From Escherichia virus TH55: DNA of 64,000 nt. Each line of letters opens with the position of its first letter. Positions within the stretch are counted from its first letter, which is position 1. The stretch lies in the sequence record MT446421.1. One strand, given 5' to 3'. Positions 1 through 53,741 of the stretch are shown one piece after another. Under the pieces are notes generated by a model. The model saw only the letters and a program-made list of their open reading frames with translations, ran no database searches and was not told the origin of the DNA. A program made the translations under genes and the position numbers.

Positions 1-240
1 AAATTCATCACCAAAAATAAGACCGGTTCCATTACGACTATGGAAAGAAAATCCAGTTCCATCGATAGTACTAAATTCCGTCACAACATTTGCTTCCATC
101 TTGGTGACTGAAAACTCTTTGGTAGTAATCAAATCAATGATAGAGGTTCCTTGCTGGTTCAAAATGCAACCGGGCATACCGACATGTTTAAGGAAGCCAT
201 CTAAATCTTTAATGCAATAACTCTTTCCAATTTTAAACAT
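1..240 (-). CDS. hypothetical protein, 3' end cut by window edge
   Basis: ATG at 238-240 preceded by GAGGA; minus frame open to position 1 (MFKIGKSYCIKDLDGF...). Confidence 0.45.
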   Translation of the reverse strand, partial: MFKIGKSYCIKDLDGFLKHVGMPGCILNQQGTSIIDLITTKEFSVTKMEANVVTEFSTIDGTGFSFHSRNGTGLIFGDEF

Positions 241-247
241 AATATCC

Positions 248-508
248 TCATTCAAATCGGATGGTTGAATTCTTGAACAACAAACCAGAACAAACAGTTC
301 CTTCAACTTTCTTACCAGTTGGACCCACGGCCGTAAAGCCTGTGTGTTGGAAATCATCTTTACCACAAGAGAACCAATTATATCCGGTGATTTGGATTTG
401 CTCATAGCCGTTTGCATCTAATACACGAATGGCGTTATCTGCATCAGTACAACCAGCTAATGAAACTGCCAGAACCAGCGCAGCAATAGAACGATTAATG
501 TATTTCAT
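248..508 (-). CDS. putative lipoprotein
   Basis: 86-aa ORF; N-terminal signal peptide with lipobox LAGC. Confidence 0.55.
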   Translation of the reverse strand: MKYINRSIAALVLAVSLAGCTDADNAIRVLDANGYEQIQITGYNWFSCGKDDFQHTGFTAVGPTGKKVEGTVCSGLLFKNSTIRFE

Positions 509-514
509 AATTTC

Positions 515-691
515 TCACTTAGTCAGCAGGTCGTAAAAACCGCCATTAACATGTTTGGGAGCCGAGACTAACCGAACAGCCAGCCGATGACAATCAGGAC
601 AAACATCATTATCTCTTTCAGAGATTTTCTTGATTTTTTCGTATTCTTTCGCGCAGTCATCAGATTGGCATTTGTAATCATAAAGTGGCAT
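515..691 (-). CDS. FmdB-like zinc-ribbon small protein (58 aa)
   Basis: Not in ORF track (<60 aa); MPLYDYKCQSDDC...CPDCH CxxC/CxxC pattern; fills gap between neighbours. Confidence 0.45.
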   Translation of the reverse strand: MPLYDYKCQSDDCAKEYEKIKKISERDNDVCPDCHRLAVRLVSAPKHVNGGFYDLLTK

Positions 692-692
692 G

Positions 693-1064
693 TTATTCCT
701 TAAAGTGTGCTTTCAACATCTGGTAAACGGTCCAGGCTTCAGAGTTATTAGAAATGGTGATTTTAGTCAAAGGGAATTCGCTTGGTTCAGATGTAGCTGC
801 GTCTTCGCATTCATCTTCAGTATCGTCATCTTTTTCTTCTTCAAAGAAACGGAATTCGTCTTCCTTTATGAATAGACTCACAAATTCACCAGTTGATAAT
901 TCCATTTTATACACATCACCATCTTCAATTCTGACTGGTCTAAATCCCTCGCCATTGATTATAGCATTGGCTATATTATCATTATCTGTGCATAACAAAC
1001 GGAATCTGCTTTCAGCAACATTATCTTTAAAATAATACCACTTATCAGTTTCAAATTTAGACAT
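693..1064 (-). CDS. hypothetical acidic protein
   Basis: ORF 693..1187 trimmed to internal ATG (1062-1064) with AGGAGA SD; resolves overlap with 1057..1281. Confidence 0.5.
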   Translation of the reverse strand: MSKFETDKWYYFKDNVAESRFRLLCTDNDNIANAIINGEGFRPVRIEDGDVYKMELSTGEFVSLFIKEDEFRFFEEEKDDDTEDECEDAATSEPSEFPLTKITISNNSEAWTVYQMLKAHFKE

Positions 1065-1329: not shown

Positions 1330-1821
1330 TTAGGCACGATGAATATCAGCATACTCAACGATAAAGCTTTCAGGAACCACCTTAAAGGTTCCAAGGAACA
1401 CAATGTTATAGAGCTTAACGCCTTCTTCAACCCACTGGTCTGTGATGTAACCAGACATGCTAGTGGTTTCATAAGTACCAAAAGGTTCGTCAACATATTC
1501 AAACGGTTTAGGTGAAACAAAAAAGACACCTTTGCCCAATTTCCATTTAAAATCAACCCCAACATGAGACTGGTCAATGGTTTCAACTTCTTCGGTCACA
1601 GGAGCGATGTACCCAGTAAATTCGGTTGATTCCAGGAATTTAGGATGCACATAAGCCAATTGAGTTTCAGTCTGACCATTTTTAGGAATAATACGCACTT
1701 TAACTTCTTTAATTCCACCTACTAAATTAGTGCGAAGACCCACAACCTCAACAAAACGACCAGCAGCTTTAGAACGAGATTCTTTAGAAACACGTACAAT
1801 ATCACCAGCTTCAACTTTCAT
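1330..1821 (-). CDS. hypothetical protein, paralog of 1900..2652
   Basis: 163-aa ORF; C-terminal ITDQWVEEGVKLYNIV block shared with next gene; own promoter motif upstream. Confidence 0.6.
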   Translation of the reverse strand: MKVEAGDIVRVSKESRSKAAGRFVEVVGLRTNLVGGIKEVKVRIIPKNGQTETQLAYVHPKFLESTEFTGYIAPVTEEVETIDQSHVGVDFKWKLGKGVFFVSPKPFEYVDEPFGTYETTSMSGYITDQWVEEGVKLYNIVFLGTFKVVPESFIVEYADIHRA

Positions 1822-1863
1822 AATTTTCTCTCTTGGTTAATAAGTTTATTCTCCAGTGGGGTC

Positions 1864-1892
1864 ATTATACTCTGACCCCAAGAGTTTGTACA
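1864..1892 (-). promoter_or_regulatory. early-type promoter (sigma70-like)
   Basis: -35 TGTACA 1887-1892, 17-bp spacer, -10 TATAAT 1864-1869; upstream of 1330..1821. Confidence 0.55.
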
Positions 1893-1899
1893 CTTAAAT

Positions 1900-2652
1900 T
1901 TAATTAAAAATTTCAACAACCATGGAACGTGGAACAACAGTAAATTCACCAGCATGAACAACGTTCAGGAGTTCAACGCCATCTTCAATCCACTGGTCTG
2001 TTACCCAACCACAAATGGAACTGTTAAATGGGCGTTTGATTTGAACTGGTTTACATAACAAGTCAATAGGGTCACCCAGTTCGCTAACTTCTTCCAGCAG
2101 TACAGATTCACGCGGATAAAGGATAGCTTCAAGATTGTCACCTGATTCATTGACCGCAGTAAATTCAAAGATGCTTTGGTGATTGTGGTACTTAACTGTT
2201 TTAACGGTAAATGGAGCAAATCCAAAAATACCTTTCAGTACGCGCCAACCGGCATTCAATGCATTAGTATTATCAAAATCACCATATCCAACAAGTTGAT
2301 AGATTTTGCCAACTTTGATAGGAGTTTCTTCAACTTCCTTGAAGAGCTCAATCTCAGCTTCATAAACAATAATTTTTTCTACTTCATTAGTATCAAGGCG
2401 ACGTGCATGCAGAATATATGCGTTATAAAACCAGTTACTTTTTACAAAAGTTTCAACAATAAATTCACCTTCACCTAAAGCATCAGCCAGAGTATTATAC
2501 CCAGAAATCATAGCTGCGTTTTGAGTAATAGGTTTAACCAGATGATAAGTTTTGTTAATTTCAATAGTCATATTTTGTTTCTCAAGTTTTAATGGTTTAA
2601 TTGGGCGAACATACATACTTACAACATCAAAGTCAATAAATTCTGGTTTCAT
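1900..2652 (-). CDS. hypothetical protein
   Basis: 250-aa ORF; C-terminal VTDQWIEDGVELLNVV block shared with 1330..1821. Confidence 0.6.
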   Translation of the reverse strand: MKPEFIDFDVVSMYVRPIKPLKLEKQNMTIEINKTYHLVKPITQNAAMISGYNTLADALGEGEFIVETFVKSNWFYNAYILHARRLDTNEVEKIIVYEAEIELFKEVEETPIKVGKIYQLVGYGDFDNTNALNAGWRVLKGIFGFAPFTVKTVKYHNHQSIFEFTAVNESGDNLEAILYPRESVLLEEVSELGDPIDLLCKPVQIKRPFNSSICGWVTDQWIEDGVELLNVVHAGEFTVVPRSMVVEIFN

Positions 2653-5550: not shown

Positions 5551-6297
5551 TTAACCTCTAATCAGTTTAAAAATTGACGCGTTCAAAGGCAGACCACGTT
5601 TCAGTTTTAATTTACCAATAAAACCAATCTTCTCAAAACGCTCAAGACCTTGAATGATTTTATCATAGCAATCAAAAAGCGTTTCAGCATTAGTTAATTT
5701 CTTGGTAACTTTCCAGTCATTACCTTTGAGCAAGACGTTCAATTTAGTAAGCTCATGACCTTCCGCAATACGGGAACCATCAATGCGAGCCTTCAGAGCA
5801 ACCATTTTTAATTGGTTTTCTTTGGACTGCTCTGATTTACTCATTTGAGCATAATGCTTAACGCGATTCTCACGTTTGTGTTGGATGTTCTTGATATGGG
5901 TATATGACTTTTTAATCTGTTCCCATTTCTCTGCAGTCAGATTTAACTTTTCAATCTTCTTGACAGATGGACGAGCAATTTTTACAGCAACATCATCACG
6001 ACGTTGTTTAAGCTCATCCAGGGACCAATCAGAACGCATGGTGTTGTATTTCTTTTTAACAGGAATAACATTACCTTTGATATAACCAATGTCATTGTTA
6101 AAACGCTCTAATGATAACTTCTCACCTTCAATAGAGTTATTAAATGTTTCACCAGAATAAGCACAAACTTTTTGGTCAAGAATGTTAACCAGGTAATTGA
6201 AATCCAGGTTAAAGTCCTTGCCACGACGTTTAGCAGAAGCTTGAGTGTGTTCCAGGCGACGTTTAACTTTCAGCGTTTTGGTTTTTGATAAAGTCAT
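5551..6297 (-). CDS. hypothetical basic protein (T4 srd position); weak HNH-like segment
   Basis: 248 aa; LSLERFNNDIGYIKGNVIPV resembles degenerate HNH_3 motif; position between dda and the ARTs. Confidence 0.5.
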   Translation of the reverse strand: MTLSKTKTLKVKRRLEHTQASAKRRGKDFNLDFNYLVNILDQKVCAYSGETFNNSIEGEKLSLERFNNDIGYIKGNVIPVKKKYNTMRSDWSLDELKQRRDDVAVKIARPSVKKIEKLNLTAEKWEQIKKSYTHIKNIQHKRENRVKHYAQMSKSEQSKENQLKMVALKARIDGSRIAEGHELTKLNVLLKGNDWKVTKKLTNAETLFDCYDKIIQGLERFEKIGFIGKLKLKRGLPLNASIFKLIRG

Positions 6298-9829: not shown

Positions 9830-9837
9830 TATTTATA
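9830..9837 (-). promoter_or_regulatory. T4-type late promoter motif TATAAATA upstream of soc
   Basis: Exact TATAAATA on minus strand about 32 nt upstream of soc ATG. Confidence 0.55.
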
Positions 9838-9839
9838 AC

Positions 9840-10358
9840 TTAATAACCCCGGTCCTGACGAGCAAAGTTCTCAGCGTTTTTCAGGTAATACAATTTAAAG
9901 ATTTCTTCTGCAGTCAGTCCAAGGCCATGGAACATGTTCAGAACAAAGTGCAGGATATCAATCATCTCAAATTTAATTTCGAGCTGGTCTTCGGGAGACA
10001 ACTCATCAATACGACGATTACGGAATTCAGCATGTTGGACTTTCCATGGTTTCCATACACTAGATGCAGCTTTCTCGCCATTAGACATACCACCGAGAGA
10101 AGTCAGAAGTTCACGGAATTCGTCGTCGACATAATCTTTCTGGTTACGAAGCCATGCAACAACATCACCTGCAGTAGCCAATTCATCTGGATGTGAGTTA
10201 TATTCTGGTTTTTCAGTAGCCAGACGAACTTGCAATGATTTCTGCATATCAAGCATAATCTGCAGCGGGTCAGTACCTTTTGTAATTGCATTGTCATAAG
10301 CTTCTTCAGCTTTATCAACACCGGCAATCAGTTGTGAACATTCATTAAAATGAGCCAT
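9840..10358 (-). CDS. 56: dCTP/dUTP pyrophosphatase gp56 (MazG-like)
   Basis: Trimmed to ATG 10356-10358 (AAGGAAA SD), 172 aa; MazG-like helical motifs; T4 gene 56 position. Confidence 0.7.
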   Translation of the reverse strand: MAHFNECSQLIAGVDKAEEAYDNAITKGTDPLQIMLDMQKSLQVRLATEKPEYNSHPDELATAGDVVAWLRNQKDYVDDEFRELLTSLGGMSNGEKAASSVWKPWKVQHAEFRNRRIDELSPEDQLEIKFEMIDILHFVLNMFHGLGLTAEEIFKLYYLKNAENFARQDRGY

Positions 10359-10443
10359 TATATTTTTCCTTATCAATTCATGTTATTTTGTATGTTAATT
10401 ATATCATATTGGTTTGAAGCATAAATACACGGAAGGAGGATAT

Positions 10444-10641
10444 ATGCTCAAACTATCTAGTCTAATTCAAGCCATCAAAGGCAGTCGTAAGCGAACGATT
10501 CTGGTCCTTTCGATACTCTGTTTAGTTCTACTCTGGAACTTCGTTGTTGCCCCTGTTGCATTGACACATGGTGTTATATTACCAGTCATTGCACTCGAAT
10601 CAGTTGTAGATATTTTACTGGCATTAATCGGCCTTATATAG
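10444..10641 (+). CDS. small hydrophobic protein on plus strand
   Basis: ATG 10444 preceded by GGAAGGAGGA; two hydrophobic helices; only plus-strand candidate, in the 56-61 gap. Confidence 0.35.
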   Translation: MLKLSSLIQAIKGSRKRTILVLSILCLVLLWNFVVAPVALTHGVILPVIALESVVDILLALIGLI

Positions 10642-10759
10642 ATGGAATAATGTGAATATTATTCCATCGGATTTGGAAATTAACCAGTAAGAAAGACAAG
10701 AAACATCATGGGCTTTTTAGCTCTTGATGTTTTTCTGTGGAACTTACCGGAATCCCTTC

Positions 10760-11788
10760 CTAAACTTTTGCGTACTTCGAAAGTCGCATTCTCGCCATCA
10801 ACCCTTGAGCAATGTTATCGGCCATATATGATTCGATTTGTTCAGGGGTTGCGCCCTCCGATTTAACCATCTCATTTATGTCTTTCGTATGCCATGGTGC
10901 ATTGTCCCAGAACATAACGGCTTCACCCGCTTCAACGAGCTTCTTCATACGTTTAATCGTATCCGGATGTCTTGGCTCGTTGTCCATTACCCATACTCGG
11001 GTTTCAGCATAAGGAACGGCTTCCAATGCTAATGTTCCACCGGTTATCGCAATGCTGTTAGGGATAAACAAACTATCAATCGGACCTTCCATTACCCACA
11101 CGCGCTTGCGCTCATCAATCTTGTCTACGCCATAGACTTTGGAAGCTTCTGGGTGAGCTTTGATTGTGATATATTTTTGTGGTGCATCTTTGCGAAGAGC
11201 TCGTCCTTGGAAAGATTCGATTTCTTTTTTGCCGTTGAAGATAGGAATAACCAAGCGTGGTTCATTCGTTTCATTCTTATACGTCCCAGGATTAACGGAG
11301 TTAACTAATGCAGGCCATTTGTTTGTAAACCATAACCGGTTCCAAACATTGCTCGGAATACACCGACTTTTCACATACTTAACTATCGGATGCGCTTCTG
11401 GTAAAGTATCGATTCTTTCGCAAAAAGCAAGCTCTTCAATAACCGGAGTTTTTTCTTGTTCTTTCGGAGCTTCTGCAACTTCATTACGTTGTCGACCGAA
11501 GGCGTTTTCCTTGTACTTCTCAACCATATATTCCCGGTGCAAATCCGGCTCAAACTCTTTTATGTATTTGCTTATATGCGTGGAGTAGTCACAGTTAAAA
11601 CATTTCACGTAAACCGCACCATCAGACGGATTGGTATACGCCCAGAATCGAGCCTTGTGCGAATCTTTCTGGGAGTCACCACAAACCTTGCAACGACAGT
11701 TTGCCTTAAATGTGCTCCCGGTGACTTCTCTATAACGTGGTTGATACGATAAAGCTCTGACTGCAAATTCTCTATCAATATATGACAT
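10760..11788 (-). CDS. 61: DNA primase gp61
   Basis: 342 aa; N-terminal Cys4 zinc-binding CRCKVCGD...CFNCDY; T4 gene 61 position and length. Confidence 0.85.
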   Translation of the reverse strand: MSYIDREFAVRALSYQPRYREVTGSTFKANCRCKVCGDSQKDSHKARFWAYTNPSDGAVYVKCFNCDYSTHISKYIKEFEPDLHREYMVEKYKENAFGRQRNEVAEAPKEQEKTPVIEELAFCERIDTLPEAHPIVKYVKSRCIPSNVWNRLWFTNKWPALVNSVNPGTYKNETNEPRLVIPIFNGKKEIESFQGRALRKDAPQKYITIKAHPEASKVYGVDKIDERKRVWVMEGPIDSLFIPNSIAITGGTLALEAVPYAETRVWVMDNEPRHPDTIKRMKKLVEAGEAVMFWDNAPWHTKDINEMVKSEGATPEQIESYMADNIAQGLMARMRLSKYAKV

Positions 11789-12007
11789 AGTTTCCTCATT
11801 TCAATGGCCCCGAAGGACCATTATACTGTAGGTTTATCGTCTTTATTCTTACGCTTTTTTGATGGGATTTGTTCAGGGCCTTTATTGACAACTGCCCCGG
11901 AAGTGGTACCTGTTGCGATATTAGTTGGGTTTCCACCTGCATCACCGGCAGCCATATCTTCGTTGATAAAATCTTTGAATGTTTTCATAACACCCCCTTT
12001 CCGCTAT

Positions 12008-12199
12008 TTATACAACGAAGATAGCTTTATCACCATTTGCATCAGTCACTTCATAAGTGTCTTCATGATACAACGGAATAATCCAGGTAACACCATCATC
12101 AGCGATAACATGGATTGCTTCTTGGTCTTGCGACACGATTTCATATTCTTCAAAAATCTGGAAGACCGAAATCTTAGAGCCCGTACACATTGCACTCAT
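12008..12199 (-). CDS. hypothetical protein
   Basis: 63-aa acidic ORF. Confidence 0.4.
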   Translation of the reverse strand: MSAMCTGSKISVFQIFEEYEIVSQDQEAIHVIADDGVTWIIPLYHEDTYEVTDANGDKAIFVV

Positions 12200-17402: not shown

Positions 17403-17906
17403 TTAGTTAATACCTTGGCGTGCTTTCTCTTTAGCTACACATTTATTAATATAGCTCAGACGGTTTTGAGCAGAACGCTGATACATATCGCGATACTCAT
17501 TAGCTTTTGGAGAACCAGCCTCTGCTGCCTGATAAGCTTCCGCGCGCATGATGTTTATCTGCATATTGATGTATGACATACAGACCTGTGAAATCTGGTT
17601 AACAGTATCCAAGTCATTTTGTCGCTTAGTTTCTGCTTCTAATTTAGCGATTACTTCATCATGCTTCGCAGCTTGCTCGCGTTTGTACTCAATTTCTTGT
17701 TGAGCATATTTCGCGCAGTTATTTCCACATTGATTGTTGTCGCGTTTGTAGATAAGTCCAGTACCACCTTTGAAATCAAAGGAACCATTATGCACCTGAC
17801 GGTCTGCAGCAATTCGCGCTTTACCAATCTCACTGGCATTAACTACATCACCCTGGTAAGCACAACCAGATAACAGTATAACAGCTGCGATAGCTAACTT
17901 TTTCAT
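17403..17906 (-). CDS. putative lipoprotein with coiled-coil
   Basis: Trimmed to ATG 17904-17906 (GAGGA SD); MKKLAIAAVILLSGC lipobox; sits where T4 has beta-gt/42. Confidence 0.55.
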   Translation of the reverse strand: MKKLAIAAVILLSGCAYQGDVVNASEIGKARIAADRQVHNGSFDFKGGTGLIYKRDNNQCGNNCAKYAQQEIEYKREQAAKHDEVIAKLEAETKRQNDLDTVNQISQVCMSYINMQINIMRAEAYQAAEAGSPKANEYRDMYQRSAQNRLSYINKCVAKEKARQGIN

Positions 17907-17916
17907 TGTATTTTCC

Positions 17917-18060
17917 TCAATTAAAACATTCATAGCGGGCTTGGAGCCCCAAAAATACCCAACCCAAAATTAAAGTTGGAATCATATGTGGAGTCATTAT
18001 TGCCCAATAGATTGACATACCAAAAAATGCAATCAGTACAATAATTGTAATCATCTTCAT
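17917..18060 (-). CDS. small membrane protein (47 aa)
   Basis: Not in ORF track; ATGA overlap with stop of 18057..18299; hydrophobic. Confidence 0.35.
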   Translation of the reverse strand: MKMITIIVLIAFFGMSIYWAIMTPHMIPTLILGWVFLGLQARYECFN

Positions 18061-35496: not shown

Positions 35497-35531
35497 AATA
35501 AACCCTTACCATTATTAGATAAGGGTATTTA

Positions 35532-35708
35532 TTAAATCTTATAAAACGCGCGGTGTAACCGTTTAAATTGACGAATCATCTTTTTAGTAGGACGAGTATA
35601 CAATCCTACACAGGTGGCCATAAACTGGTCGGTAGGACTTCCTTTAATAAGAAGTTTCCAGACCTTGACACCATTTAACTTTTCGGTATAGACTAATGCA
35701 GTTTTCAT
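35532..35708 (-). CDS. small basic protein, PTKRQIR family (58 aa)
   Basis: Not in ORF track; ...RPTKKMIRQFKRLHR; ATGA overlap with upstream stop. Confidence 0.4.
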   Translation of the reverse strand: MKTALVYTEKLNGVKVWKLLIKGSPTDQFMATCVGLYTRPTKKMIRQFKRLHRAFYKI

Positions 35709-53258: not shown

Positions 53259-53278
53259 TACCCCCTTATATAGGGGTA
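53259..53278 (-). promoter_or_regulatory. RBS-sequestering hairpin at lysozyme start
   Basis: Inverted repeat UACCCC/GGGGUA with 8-nt loop; SD AAGGGGG in 3' arm; AATAAATA overlaps 5' arm. Confidence 0.5.
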
Positions 53279-53282
53279 TTTA

Positions 53283-53741
53283 TTATCCGAAAATTTGAGT
53301 CATTACCTTGTACATCGATTTGCCCATCACATACTGCCATTGACTCGGTTTAATCAGAGCAAATGCATCGAACTCTGGAACCGAACTACCATCCGGGAAG
53401 GTATGATAGGCAGAGCATTTACTATGTCTAAACTGCTCATGCTCAACCGGAACCGTGTACAAAAACAGGTGAAGATTTTTGTTATCTGAATAACGGAACT
53501 CACCCAGGTCCTTTAAGAATGCCGGGTCGTATTGGGTAAACCCGGTTTCTTCTTCGGTTTCACGGATAGCCGCTTCAATCGGGGATTCACCAGCTTCAAC
53601 ATGGCCCTTAGGGATGTCCCATTTATGTGCAGGCATACCTGGTTTACGAGAACAAGTCACACGACCCATGAATAACTCTTTATCTTCAGTCATGAAAATA
53701 ATGCCAGCAGATAATTCTTTCACCTTGTTTTTCTTACTCAT
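53283..53741 (-). CDS. nudE: Nudix hydrolase NudE
   Basis: Trimmed to internal ATG; Nudix box GHVEAGESPIEAAIRETEEETG. Confidence 0.8.
   Translation of the reverse strand: MSKKNKVKELSAGIIFMTEDKELFMGRVTCSRKPGMPAHKWDIPKGHVEAGESPIEAAIRETEEETGFTQYDPAFLKDLGEFRYSDNKNLHLFLYTVPVEHEQFRHSKCSAYHTFPDGSSVPEFDAFALIKPSQWQYVMGKSMYKVMTQIFG

Follow-up and report, generated by a model that had tools for sequence, protein, structure and literature searches.

A conserved gene for a predicted small membrane protein between genes 56 and 61 of Escherichia virus TH55: late-promoter-like control and a possible remote link to GTA-type holins

The proteins T (218 aa) and RI (97 aa) of phage T4, its holin and antiholin, are made late in infection. 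Each is held in the inner membrane by a single anchor helix, and the rest of the protein, with a globular domain, lies in the periplasm. T4-like phages already have holin T, and t mutants of T4 do not lyse. Among the holins of Pfam family PF11351 (GTA_holin_3TM), the founding member is rcc00556, which belongs to the rcc00555-rcc00556 lysis locus needed for the release of RcGTA (PMC5026251). Regarding transcription, the early and middle transcripts of T4 all run counterclockwise, while the late ones run either way (PMC2988020). The late promoter of T4 is TATAAATA at positions -13 to -6; 32 of 50 T4 sites are perfect and nine carry A at -13 (PMC2988020). This is the least conserved position of the T4 late promoters (PMC2988020, PMC1524935), and it is poorly conserved in other T4-like phages as well (PMC1524935).

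The DNA analysed here, referred to as the window, is a stretch of 64,000 nucleotides from Escherichia virus TH55 (MT446421.1). Its bases 10300-10800 are 100% identical to those of TH22 and UPEC07, two T4-like Escherichia phages in the genus Gaprivervirus. An earlier note had pointed to a plus-strand ORF for a hydrophobic product of 65 aa with a strong Shine-Dalgarno sequence, and this was confirmed from the sequence (Table 1); the product reads MLKLSSLIQAIKGSRKRTILVLSILCLVLLWNFVVAPVALTHGVILPVIALESVVDILLALIGLI. The gap between the start of gene 56 (10358) and the stop of gene 61 (10760) measures 401 bp, instead of the 380 bp given before, and is AT-rich. It had also been described as having no minus-strand ORF. 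Strictly, two mechanical ORFs of 40 and 30 aa exist on that strand, antisense inside the plus ORF; neither is conserved or annotated. In the identical and annotated phage UPEC07, one strand holds 116 of the 117 features over 50 kb, and the sole feature on the opposite strand is the ORF under study. This bears out its description as the only plus-strand gene, as well as its orientation against the early transcription unit.

Table 1. Positions of the features at the locus, numbered from the first base of the window.
Feature	Position	Strand	Details
Gene 56 (dCTPase), divergent left neighbour	9840..10358	-	phrog_173, E 2e-44; annotations of UPEC07, VR7 and others
CATAAATA, T4-type late-promoter-like box	10420..10427	+	7/8 match to TATAAATA, with the one difference at -13; 16 nt before ATG
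Shine-Dalgarno sequence GGAAGGAGGA	10431..10440	+	Read directly from the sequence
Gene for a 65-aa small membrane protein (predicted), type A of phrog_2024	10444..10641	+	ATG 10444-10446, stop TAG 10639-10641
12-bp inverted repeat (hairpin of the earlier note)	10641..10668	.	Stem 10641-10652 / 10657-10668
Pseudogene remnant of tandem paralogue, type B	10650..10763	+	Aligned with the 66-aa copy that is intact in MN01 and VR26
Second hairpin, inside the copy B remnant	10696..10738	+	dG -19.3, z -4.2
Gene 61 (DNA primase), convergent right neighbour, syntenic partner of phrog_2024	10760..11788	-	phrog_47, E 4e-95

The protein is 100% identical to QUL77728.1 of phage UPEC07. The same gene is annotated as hypothetical in UPEC07, VR7 (VR7ORF033w), RB51 (RB32ORF030w) and JS09 (RB69ORF029w), and the record of EAWsc9 labels it "holin family protein". 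The ORF is already known, being present in GenBank and in a PHROGs family without assigned function (phrog_2024), and therefore the finding itself is not new. A literature search on the ORF names and on phrog_2024 yielded no paper naming or studying the family, and a search for T4 Ribo-seq or small-ORF studies yielded nothing relevant. The label "head morphogenesis protein" in T6 and other product names in T6 and UPEC07 look like transfer errors and were given no weight.

In order to evaluate how the gene could be expressed, the region upstream of its ATG was compared among 12 loci from five genera, with differing upstream neighbours. The motif NATAAATA was found 16-22 nt before the ATG in 12/12 loci, followed in every case by AGGAGG or AGGAG. 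The box is a perfect TATAAATA in the Marfa-like Klebsiella phages, AATAAATA in RB51, JS09 and JS98, GATAAATA in T4 and CATAAATA in Gaprivervirus; the C at -13 of this last form departs from the consensus, the variants in the literature having mostly A. ATAAATA is depleted in the 64-kb window (8 found, 22.1 +/- 4.5 expected), and its only plus-strand occurrence is at 10421-10427. On the minus strand, soc and 61.1 are preceded by TATAAATA at 31 and 17 nt, and the lysozyme gene e by AATAAATA at 20 nt. Sigma-70 promoter-like sites were no more frequent than background (4 found, 2.6 expected). Since only late transcripts run either way in T4, a clockwise gene in an early region is expected to be late. 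The unique plus-strand box, together with a motif at the same place in every genus checked, makes this the most likely class, and the gene is probably transcribed late from the putative CATAAATA promoter.

The box could have been thought to be solely the -35 element of a divergent early promoter of gene 56. This was rejected: the distance to the nearest minus-strand -10-like box is 2, 17, 19-20 or 47 nt, or no such box is present, whereas the spacing to the ORF is conserved. In Gaprivervirus the reverse complement of the box lies 17 nt from a minus-strand TGATATAAT, and so the candidate box could double there as part of the early promoter of gene 56. The late-promoter-like CATAAATA, absent from the earlier note, offers a natural reason for a gene pointing against the early unit.

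An AlphaFold2 model of the protein, built from a 30-sequence alignment (mean pLDDT 75), displayed helices at residues 2-11, 15-41 and 51-61. These correspond to one certain transmembrane segment (15-41) and one short C-terminal helix (51-61). The hydropathy of the transmembrane segment was 2.39, and the N-terminus carries a net charge of +5. In every subfamily the central segment scores as strongly hydrophobic (Kyte-Doolittle 1.65-2.39). Over the final 18 residues, type A, the form to which the TH55 protein belongs, is hydrophobic (1.8-2.5); type B and the distant members are far less hydrophobic there (0.6-1.4). From the model, the hydropathy and the charge, the protein is predicted to insert in the inner membrane, and this is held to be very likely. 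The topology inferred is that of an anchor with the N-terminus inside; the C-terminal helix would dip back into the membrane or rest on its outer face. The TH55 protein and its T4 and JS09 homologues gave no match in Pfam or NCBIfam scans, and a Foldseek search of the model against viral structures returned only family members.

A relation to holins was then assessed at the level of profiles. The TH55 protein gave no match to PF11351 (gathering threshold 24.8 bits) even at E<=10. Its relatives scored 13.6-17.3 bits (E 0.007-0.1), below the 24.8 cut-off and always at profile positions of about 57-117. One lineage of relatives matched the holin family phrog_3427 (E 5e-4, sub-threshold). For several members the sub-threshold PF11351 and phrog_3427 matches fall in the same profile region. 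Starting from a chromosomal relative of 97 aa, tblastn led to annotated holins of Paracoccus phage ParKuw1, Methylophilales phage MEP301 and a metagenomic podovirus (ctXG1253). All three are solid members of PF11351 (E 1e-15 to 1e-19) and lie beside endolysin genes.

When the phrog_2024 family was aligned by hhalign with PF11351 holins, represented by a profile of only four sequences from lysis cassettes, a probability of 80.4% was obtained (E 1.3e-5) over 49 columns, family positions 18-66 against holin positions 67-122; transmembrane segments are prone to spurious profile matches, and reversed and 30 column-shuffled controls remained at or below 3.1%. The values for subsets of the family were 78.5% for type A, 87.5% for the distant members and only 3.6% for type B. 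These comparisons slightly favour a common ancestry of phrog_2024 and the PF11351 holins, and it is plausible to see the family as a reduced relative of the final two helices of GTA-type holins.

A shared origin would fit a working (pin)holin or antiholin, which would form or gate membrane lesions and set the time of lysis together with holin T, RI and RIII. This reading draws on the remote similarity to the last two helices of holins from real endolysin-holin cassettes, on the late-promoter-like control, and on a product that is small, predicted to be embedded in the membrane and basic at its cytoplasmic end. Two databases or records label members as "holin", apparently by automatic transfer, but no experimental support was found for these labels. 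Moreover, the protein has one certain transmembrane segment in place of the three of PF11351, of the holin profile only the C-terminal part is aligned, and the Pfam threshold is not reached. The charged cytoplasmic C-terminal tail typical of holins is absent: the protein ends in ...LLALIGLI and has its charge at the N-terminus instead. The gene also lies outside a lysis cassette, its neighbours being 56 and 61 and the lysozyme gene e lying near 53.2 kb, 40 kb away. T4 t mutants do not lyse though they carry the gene. Altogether, such a holin or antiholin is rather unlikely. An autonomous holin role is unlikely because holin T is present and t mutants fail to lyse. Some role in lysis or membrane permeabilisation is possible, although not the expected outcome.

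The distribution of the family was also examined. Type A comprises the TH55 ORF and the copies of Tequatrovirus, T4 included, and Mosigvirus; type B is found in the JS98-like Dhakavirus and in the Marfa-like Klebsiella phages. At every locus inspected the gene runs clockwise towards the primase gene 61, converging on its 3' end, and in most loci the stop codons of the two overlap by 4 nt. The same orientation and neighbour were observed in T4, RB51, T6, fPS-65, JS09, VR7, MN01, VR26 and the JS98-, Marfa- and S16-like phages. The gene ends 4 nt inside gene 61 by annotation in T4, RB51, T6, fPS-65, JS09, MN01 and VR26, and by ORF calls in the JS98- and Marfa-like phages. The upstream neighbour varies, being 56, dam, a gene for a 93-aa MazG-like protein or a homing endonuclease gene. 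The distant members of the S16-like phages and of Citrobacter phage CkP1 adjoin the primase gene, and their match overlaps the annotated primase. In the T4 reference (NC_000866.4) an intact homologue was found at 17738..17938, within the 309-bp "gap" that separates dam from 61 and carries no annotated feature. Homologues were also detected in chromosomes, within prophage-like islands; the one in Raoultella adjoins a RelA_SpoT (toxSAS-type) gene. A tblastn search with P0119 gave no phage homologue.

Such islands, and the RelA_SpoT gene in Raoultella, are a typical neighbourhood of defence genes or morons. This would suit a membrane-active effector unrelated to lysis, acting in late superinfection exclusion or anti-defence, or as a depolarising peptide of the type I toxin kind, which the antisense 61-56 transcript would restrain early on. 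The ORF is indeed wholly antisense to the early transcript reading through from 61 into 56, an arrangement resembling type I toxin loci, and one family member gave a faint match to Ldr_toxin (E 0.1). However, this match is at noise level, no significant similarity to known toxin, exclusion or anti-defence families was found, and the neighbours in the chromosomal islands are themselves uncharacterised. A function of this kind is considered improbable.

The space between the TH55 gene and gene 61 showed the remains of a second copy. In the Gaprivervirus phages MN01 and VR26, copy A is followed after 8 nt by an intact copy B, which ends 4 nt inside gene 61. Alignment with them shows 10650-10763 to be what is left of copy B: this lineage once carried two tandem paralogues, A and then B, and B decayed in TH55. 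In the TH55 copy B, the ATG (10650-10652) is directly followed by TGA (10653-10655), 2 bp are deleted, and a further 86 bp are missing with a junction near 10749/10750. Other lineages show other lesions of B: SP18 has lost 97 bp, VR7 has a +1 frameshift, VR20 combines a nonsense mutation with the 2-bp deletion, and in DK-13 a homing-endonuclease gene has replaced it. A mechanical ORF at 10708..10866 is a by-product of the remnant. Disruption in close relatives, which the earlier note had proposed as evidence against the ORF, was found only next door: in every Gaprivervirus examined copy A is intact, never disrupted, while B carries five different inactivating lesions.

The inverted repeat reported in the earlier note (GGAATAAT...ATTATTCC) is present and longer than stated, with a stem of 12 bp. 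It starts at the last base of the stop codon of the ORF and has a folding energy of -13.5 kcal/mol for the plus-strand RNA and -12.9 for the minus strand (z -3.6 and -5.7). The repeat consists of the decayed ribosome-binding site and opening codons of copy B, and three base changes relative to the intact copy improve its pairing. In EAWsc9 the 6-nt loop is exactly reverse-complemented (GTGAAT vs ATTCAC), a change taken to be the trace of template switching at a quasi-palindrome. The second hairpin was made perfect by the 2-bp deletion of copy B, as seen by comparison with the intact copy. Neither hairpin was called in a terminator scan, which returned only the 5-bp tip of the second (1 found, 0.4 expected), and no U-tract follows either of them. 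The first hairpin is no obvious terminator, since it lies in the remains of the copy B start and no U-run follows. The hairpins may help to end or stabilise the mRNA of the gene now that copy B is gone; equally, they may be mutational by-products in dead sequence. An Rfam scan of 10200-10900 gave only a sub-threshold match to SpF11 sRNA (29 bits vs 54), which was treated as chance.

Coding constraint was evaluated across the family. The phrog_2024 HMM matched the TH55 protein with E 6.4e-26, residues 1-65 against profile positions 1-65/65, and also matched type B and the distant members. Conservation in related phages, proposed earlier as a check, was extensive: tblastn with the protein matched 697 phage records, 689 of them at >=80% query coverage. 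Divergent members were found in 164 further records from Klebsiella, Salmonella, Citrobacter and other phages. Searching 5.8 billion proteins with a profile gave 106 relatives, mostly of 65-66 aa with a few truncated or extended. Among 1.84 billion cluster representatives only a handful of more distant small proteins was added, and the common core was hhhW-N-hhhhPhAAxxGhxLPxhxhE. Related-locus searches with single proteins gave only 3 and 11 loci. The main types A and B keep a fixed length of 65-66 aa, and the divergent members range from 57 to 97 aa. The residues W-N-P-G-P are invariant across members.

Variability at codon positions 1/2/3 was 0.30/0.11/0.36 in type A and 0.19/0.09/0.46 in type B, in the order 3>1>2 in both. 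Between genera, synonymous sites are saturated (pS 0.6-0.99) with pN of 0.13-0.39, and dN/dS is 0.05-0.38. For close pairs within Tequatrovirus and Dhakavirus it was 0.05-0.15. Within Gaprivervirus it was 0.2-0.7, based on few changes that are mostly swaps among the hydrophobic residues I/V/L/A; this shows only moderate constraint on the TH55 ORF within its genus. Judged from these comparisons, 10444-10641(+) is almost certainly a genuine protein-coding gene.

The same data bear on two further explanations. One holds that a late antisense transcript is the selected function, shutting down or processing the primase and 56 mRNAs, with the peptide being secondary. The convergent 4-nt overlap with gene 61, conserved across genera, would agree with it, but selection clearly acts on the amino-acid sequence, and the overlap was lost in TH55 while the ORF was retained. 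An antisense role would not preserve a frame of 65-66 codons, the invariant residues or the Shine-Dalgarno site, and it is regarded as highly improbable. The weakest explanation is the chance ORF in a regulatory spacer, holding only promoters, terminators or origin signals for 56 and 61, which the earlier note had set beside a real membrane peptide: the gap is AT-rich, with a divergent promoter-like TGATATAAT for gene 56 and two hairpins, and T4 and fPS-65 show a minus-strand terminator-like hairpin inside the first codons of the ORF, but the hairpins are not kept beyond a few close relatives, and the end-to-end family match, the near-complete length in 689/697 records, the 65-66 aa held across genera with unalignable DNA and the third-position-biased substitution with dN/dS well below 1 rule it out on comparative grounds, leaving it next to no probability. 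Of those two alternatives it is the membrane peptide that stands, being conserved, under purifying selection and annotated in relatives.

The preferred reading is that of a real late gene for a membrane protein resembling GTA-type holins and accessory to lysis, with its tandem copy B decayed. The phrog_2024 family is kept at one fixed place in the enterobacterial T4-like phages, clockwise into the end of gene 61 and against the early unit. The gp55-RNA polymerase would transcribe the TH55 gene late, using the CATAAATA box, and translation would rely on the strong Shine-Dalgarno sequence. The product would have a basic cytoplasmic N-terminus, one transmembrane helix with the invariant W-N...P motif, a short periplasmic G..LP turn, and a C-terminal helix re-entering or lying on the membrane. 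The best guess is an accessory role in lysis or its timing, exerted at the inner membrane late in infection by a protein that is not itself the holin. As a whole, this explanation appears fairly likely. A bolder version is that T4 and essentially all enterobacterial T4-like phages have an overlooked late membrane mini-protein derived from the last two helices of a GTA-type holin, a missing component of lysis or lysis inhibition; this is unlikely, with odds a little below those of a (pin)holin. If it were true, the A and B forms would be interchangeable, and one would therefore decay when both are present.

For the TH55 window, these results mean that the lone "wrong-way" gene is real and already in the catalogues, and that a putative late-type promoter accounts for its direction, which is mainly housekeeping. 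Three points appear to be unreported in the material searched: the T4 homologue, the A and B forms with repeated decay of B, and the profile link to PF11351. T4 is the best-studied phage, and its reference annotation omits an intact, constrained copy. Omics and CRISPRi screens relying on that annotation therefore never score the gene. The two forms substitute for each other at one locus and the tandem B is repeatedly destroyed, which amounts to a natural complementation experiment. Likewise, the remote GTA-holin link provides a concrete and cheap functional hypothesis for a gene kept by hundreds of phages.

Compared with T and RI of T4, the TH55 protein is likewise expected late and is predicted to be anchored in the inner membrane by one helix close to its N-terminus. 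It differs from them in that no sequence similarity was detected and at most about 24 residues lie beyond the membrane helix. The rI gene is present elsewhere in the TH55 genome.

The PF11351 holins are, like the predicted TH55 product, small phage membrane proteins. Aligned with holin profile positions of about 66-122 are a transmembrane helix with W-x-F...P, a G..(L)P turn, an acidic residue and a last helix rich in G. In contrast, the TH55 protein is half their size, lacks the N-terminal helices and the basic C-terminal tail, and falls below the Pfam cut-off; and the examples of PF11351 lie directly beside endolysin, lysozyme or peptidase M15 genes, unlike the gene studied here.

The closest counterparts are the other phrog_2024 genes (RB69ORF029w, RB32ORF030w and VR7ORF033w), which share its length, strand and position converging on gene 61. 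In most loci the gene overlaps gene 61, whereas in TH55 the two are separated by 118 bp of decayed paralogue. Clockwise late genes in the early regions of T4 show that the same polarity is possible (PMC2988020); the candidate box of the TH55 gene has C at -13, compared with T or A. Like the late promoters of soc, 61.1 and e, this gene carries a TATAAATA-type box 16-31 nt before its Shine-Dalgarno sequence and ATG.

Directly beyond the flagged gene (65-aa predicted membrane protein, type A), a decayed copy of its type B paralogue was recognized, whose lesions are listed in the table below. The type B copy is intact in phages MN01 and VR26, and it has been inactivated in four further ways in SP18, VR7, VR20 and DK-13. 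In the 12-bp hairpin found here, three differences from the intact gene have made the arms complementary. Its loop (10653-10658) reads GTGAAT in the window and ATTCAC, the exact reverse complement, at the same position of the nearly identical phage EAWsc9. Judged from the sequences, the loop inversion together with the arm changes looks like a template-switch mutation at a quasi-palindrome.

An intact homologue of the small gene was located in T4. It lies in the 309-bp dam-61 interval, for which the reference record annotates no feature, and the same holds for T4 record MT984581. In T4 and fPS-65 a terminator-like hairpin, positioned downstream of gene 61, lies on the opposite strand inside the small gene; its conservation does not extend to the window or to JS98-like phages. 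In the annotations of UPEC07 and T6 (AP018814), many product names look like errors of automatic transfer and are unfit as functional evidence. Examples are eight "thioredoxin" genes, a "molybdenum ABC transporter", gp56 as "ferredoxin" and, in T6, the small gene as "head morphogenesis protein".

The neighbourhood of genes 56 and 61 is an insertion hot spot. Besides the insertions tabulated, dam is present there in T4 and fPS-65, with an additional ORF in the latter.

Features in the window and in comparison loci (L-numbers)
Feature	Position	Strand	Remarks
Type B tandem paralogue of flagged gene, pseudogene remnant	window 10650-10763	+	stop directly after ATG, 2-bp deletion, 86-bp deletion
Small-gene homologue, T4, intact, 66 aa	NC_000866.4 (L034) 17738..17938; L005 2492-2692	+	AGGAGG and GATAAATA upstream
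Terminator-like hairpin AUGGCAUU-AACA-AGUGCCAU, then UUAAUUUUU	T4 (L005) 2507-2526; fPS-65 (L007) 1496-1536	-	within small-gene codons 6-13
Homing endonuclease	DK-13 (L012) 1717-2466		between small gene and 61
segF	VR7 (L003) 380-1051; VR26 (L010) 80-751		between 56 and soc
soc genes, two	SP18 (L011) 234-699		
Late-promoter box, soc	window 9830-9837	-	31 nt before gene
Late-promoter box, 61.1	window 12005-12012	-	17 nt before gene
Late-promoter box AATAAATA, lysozyme e	window 53277-53284	-	20 nt before gene
Second AATAAATA box	window 35526-35533	-	upstream of ORF starting MLLTGKL

The motif ATAAATA is strongly depleted in the whole window (8 occurrences on both strands, against 22.1 ± 4.5 expected) and skewed in strand (1 plus, 7 minus), which is consistent with avoidance of stray late promoters. 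A late-type box of its own was unexpected for 61.1.

Relatives of the family (70-97 aa) were also found in chromosomal contigs of E. coli and Raoultella (L027-L033; homologue at 6001-6213 or 6001-6294). The two ORFs upstream (about 196 and 106 aa) had no PHROG match. These relatives lie at the margin of prophage-like regions, near one gene that resembles T4 lysozyme and a GIY-YIG gene that resembles SegE, and in Raoultella a RelA_SpoT (toxSAS-like) gene follows immediately downstream.
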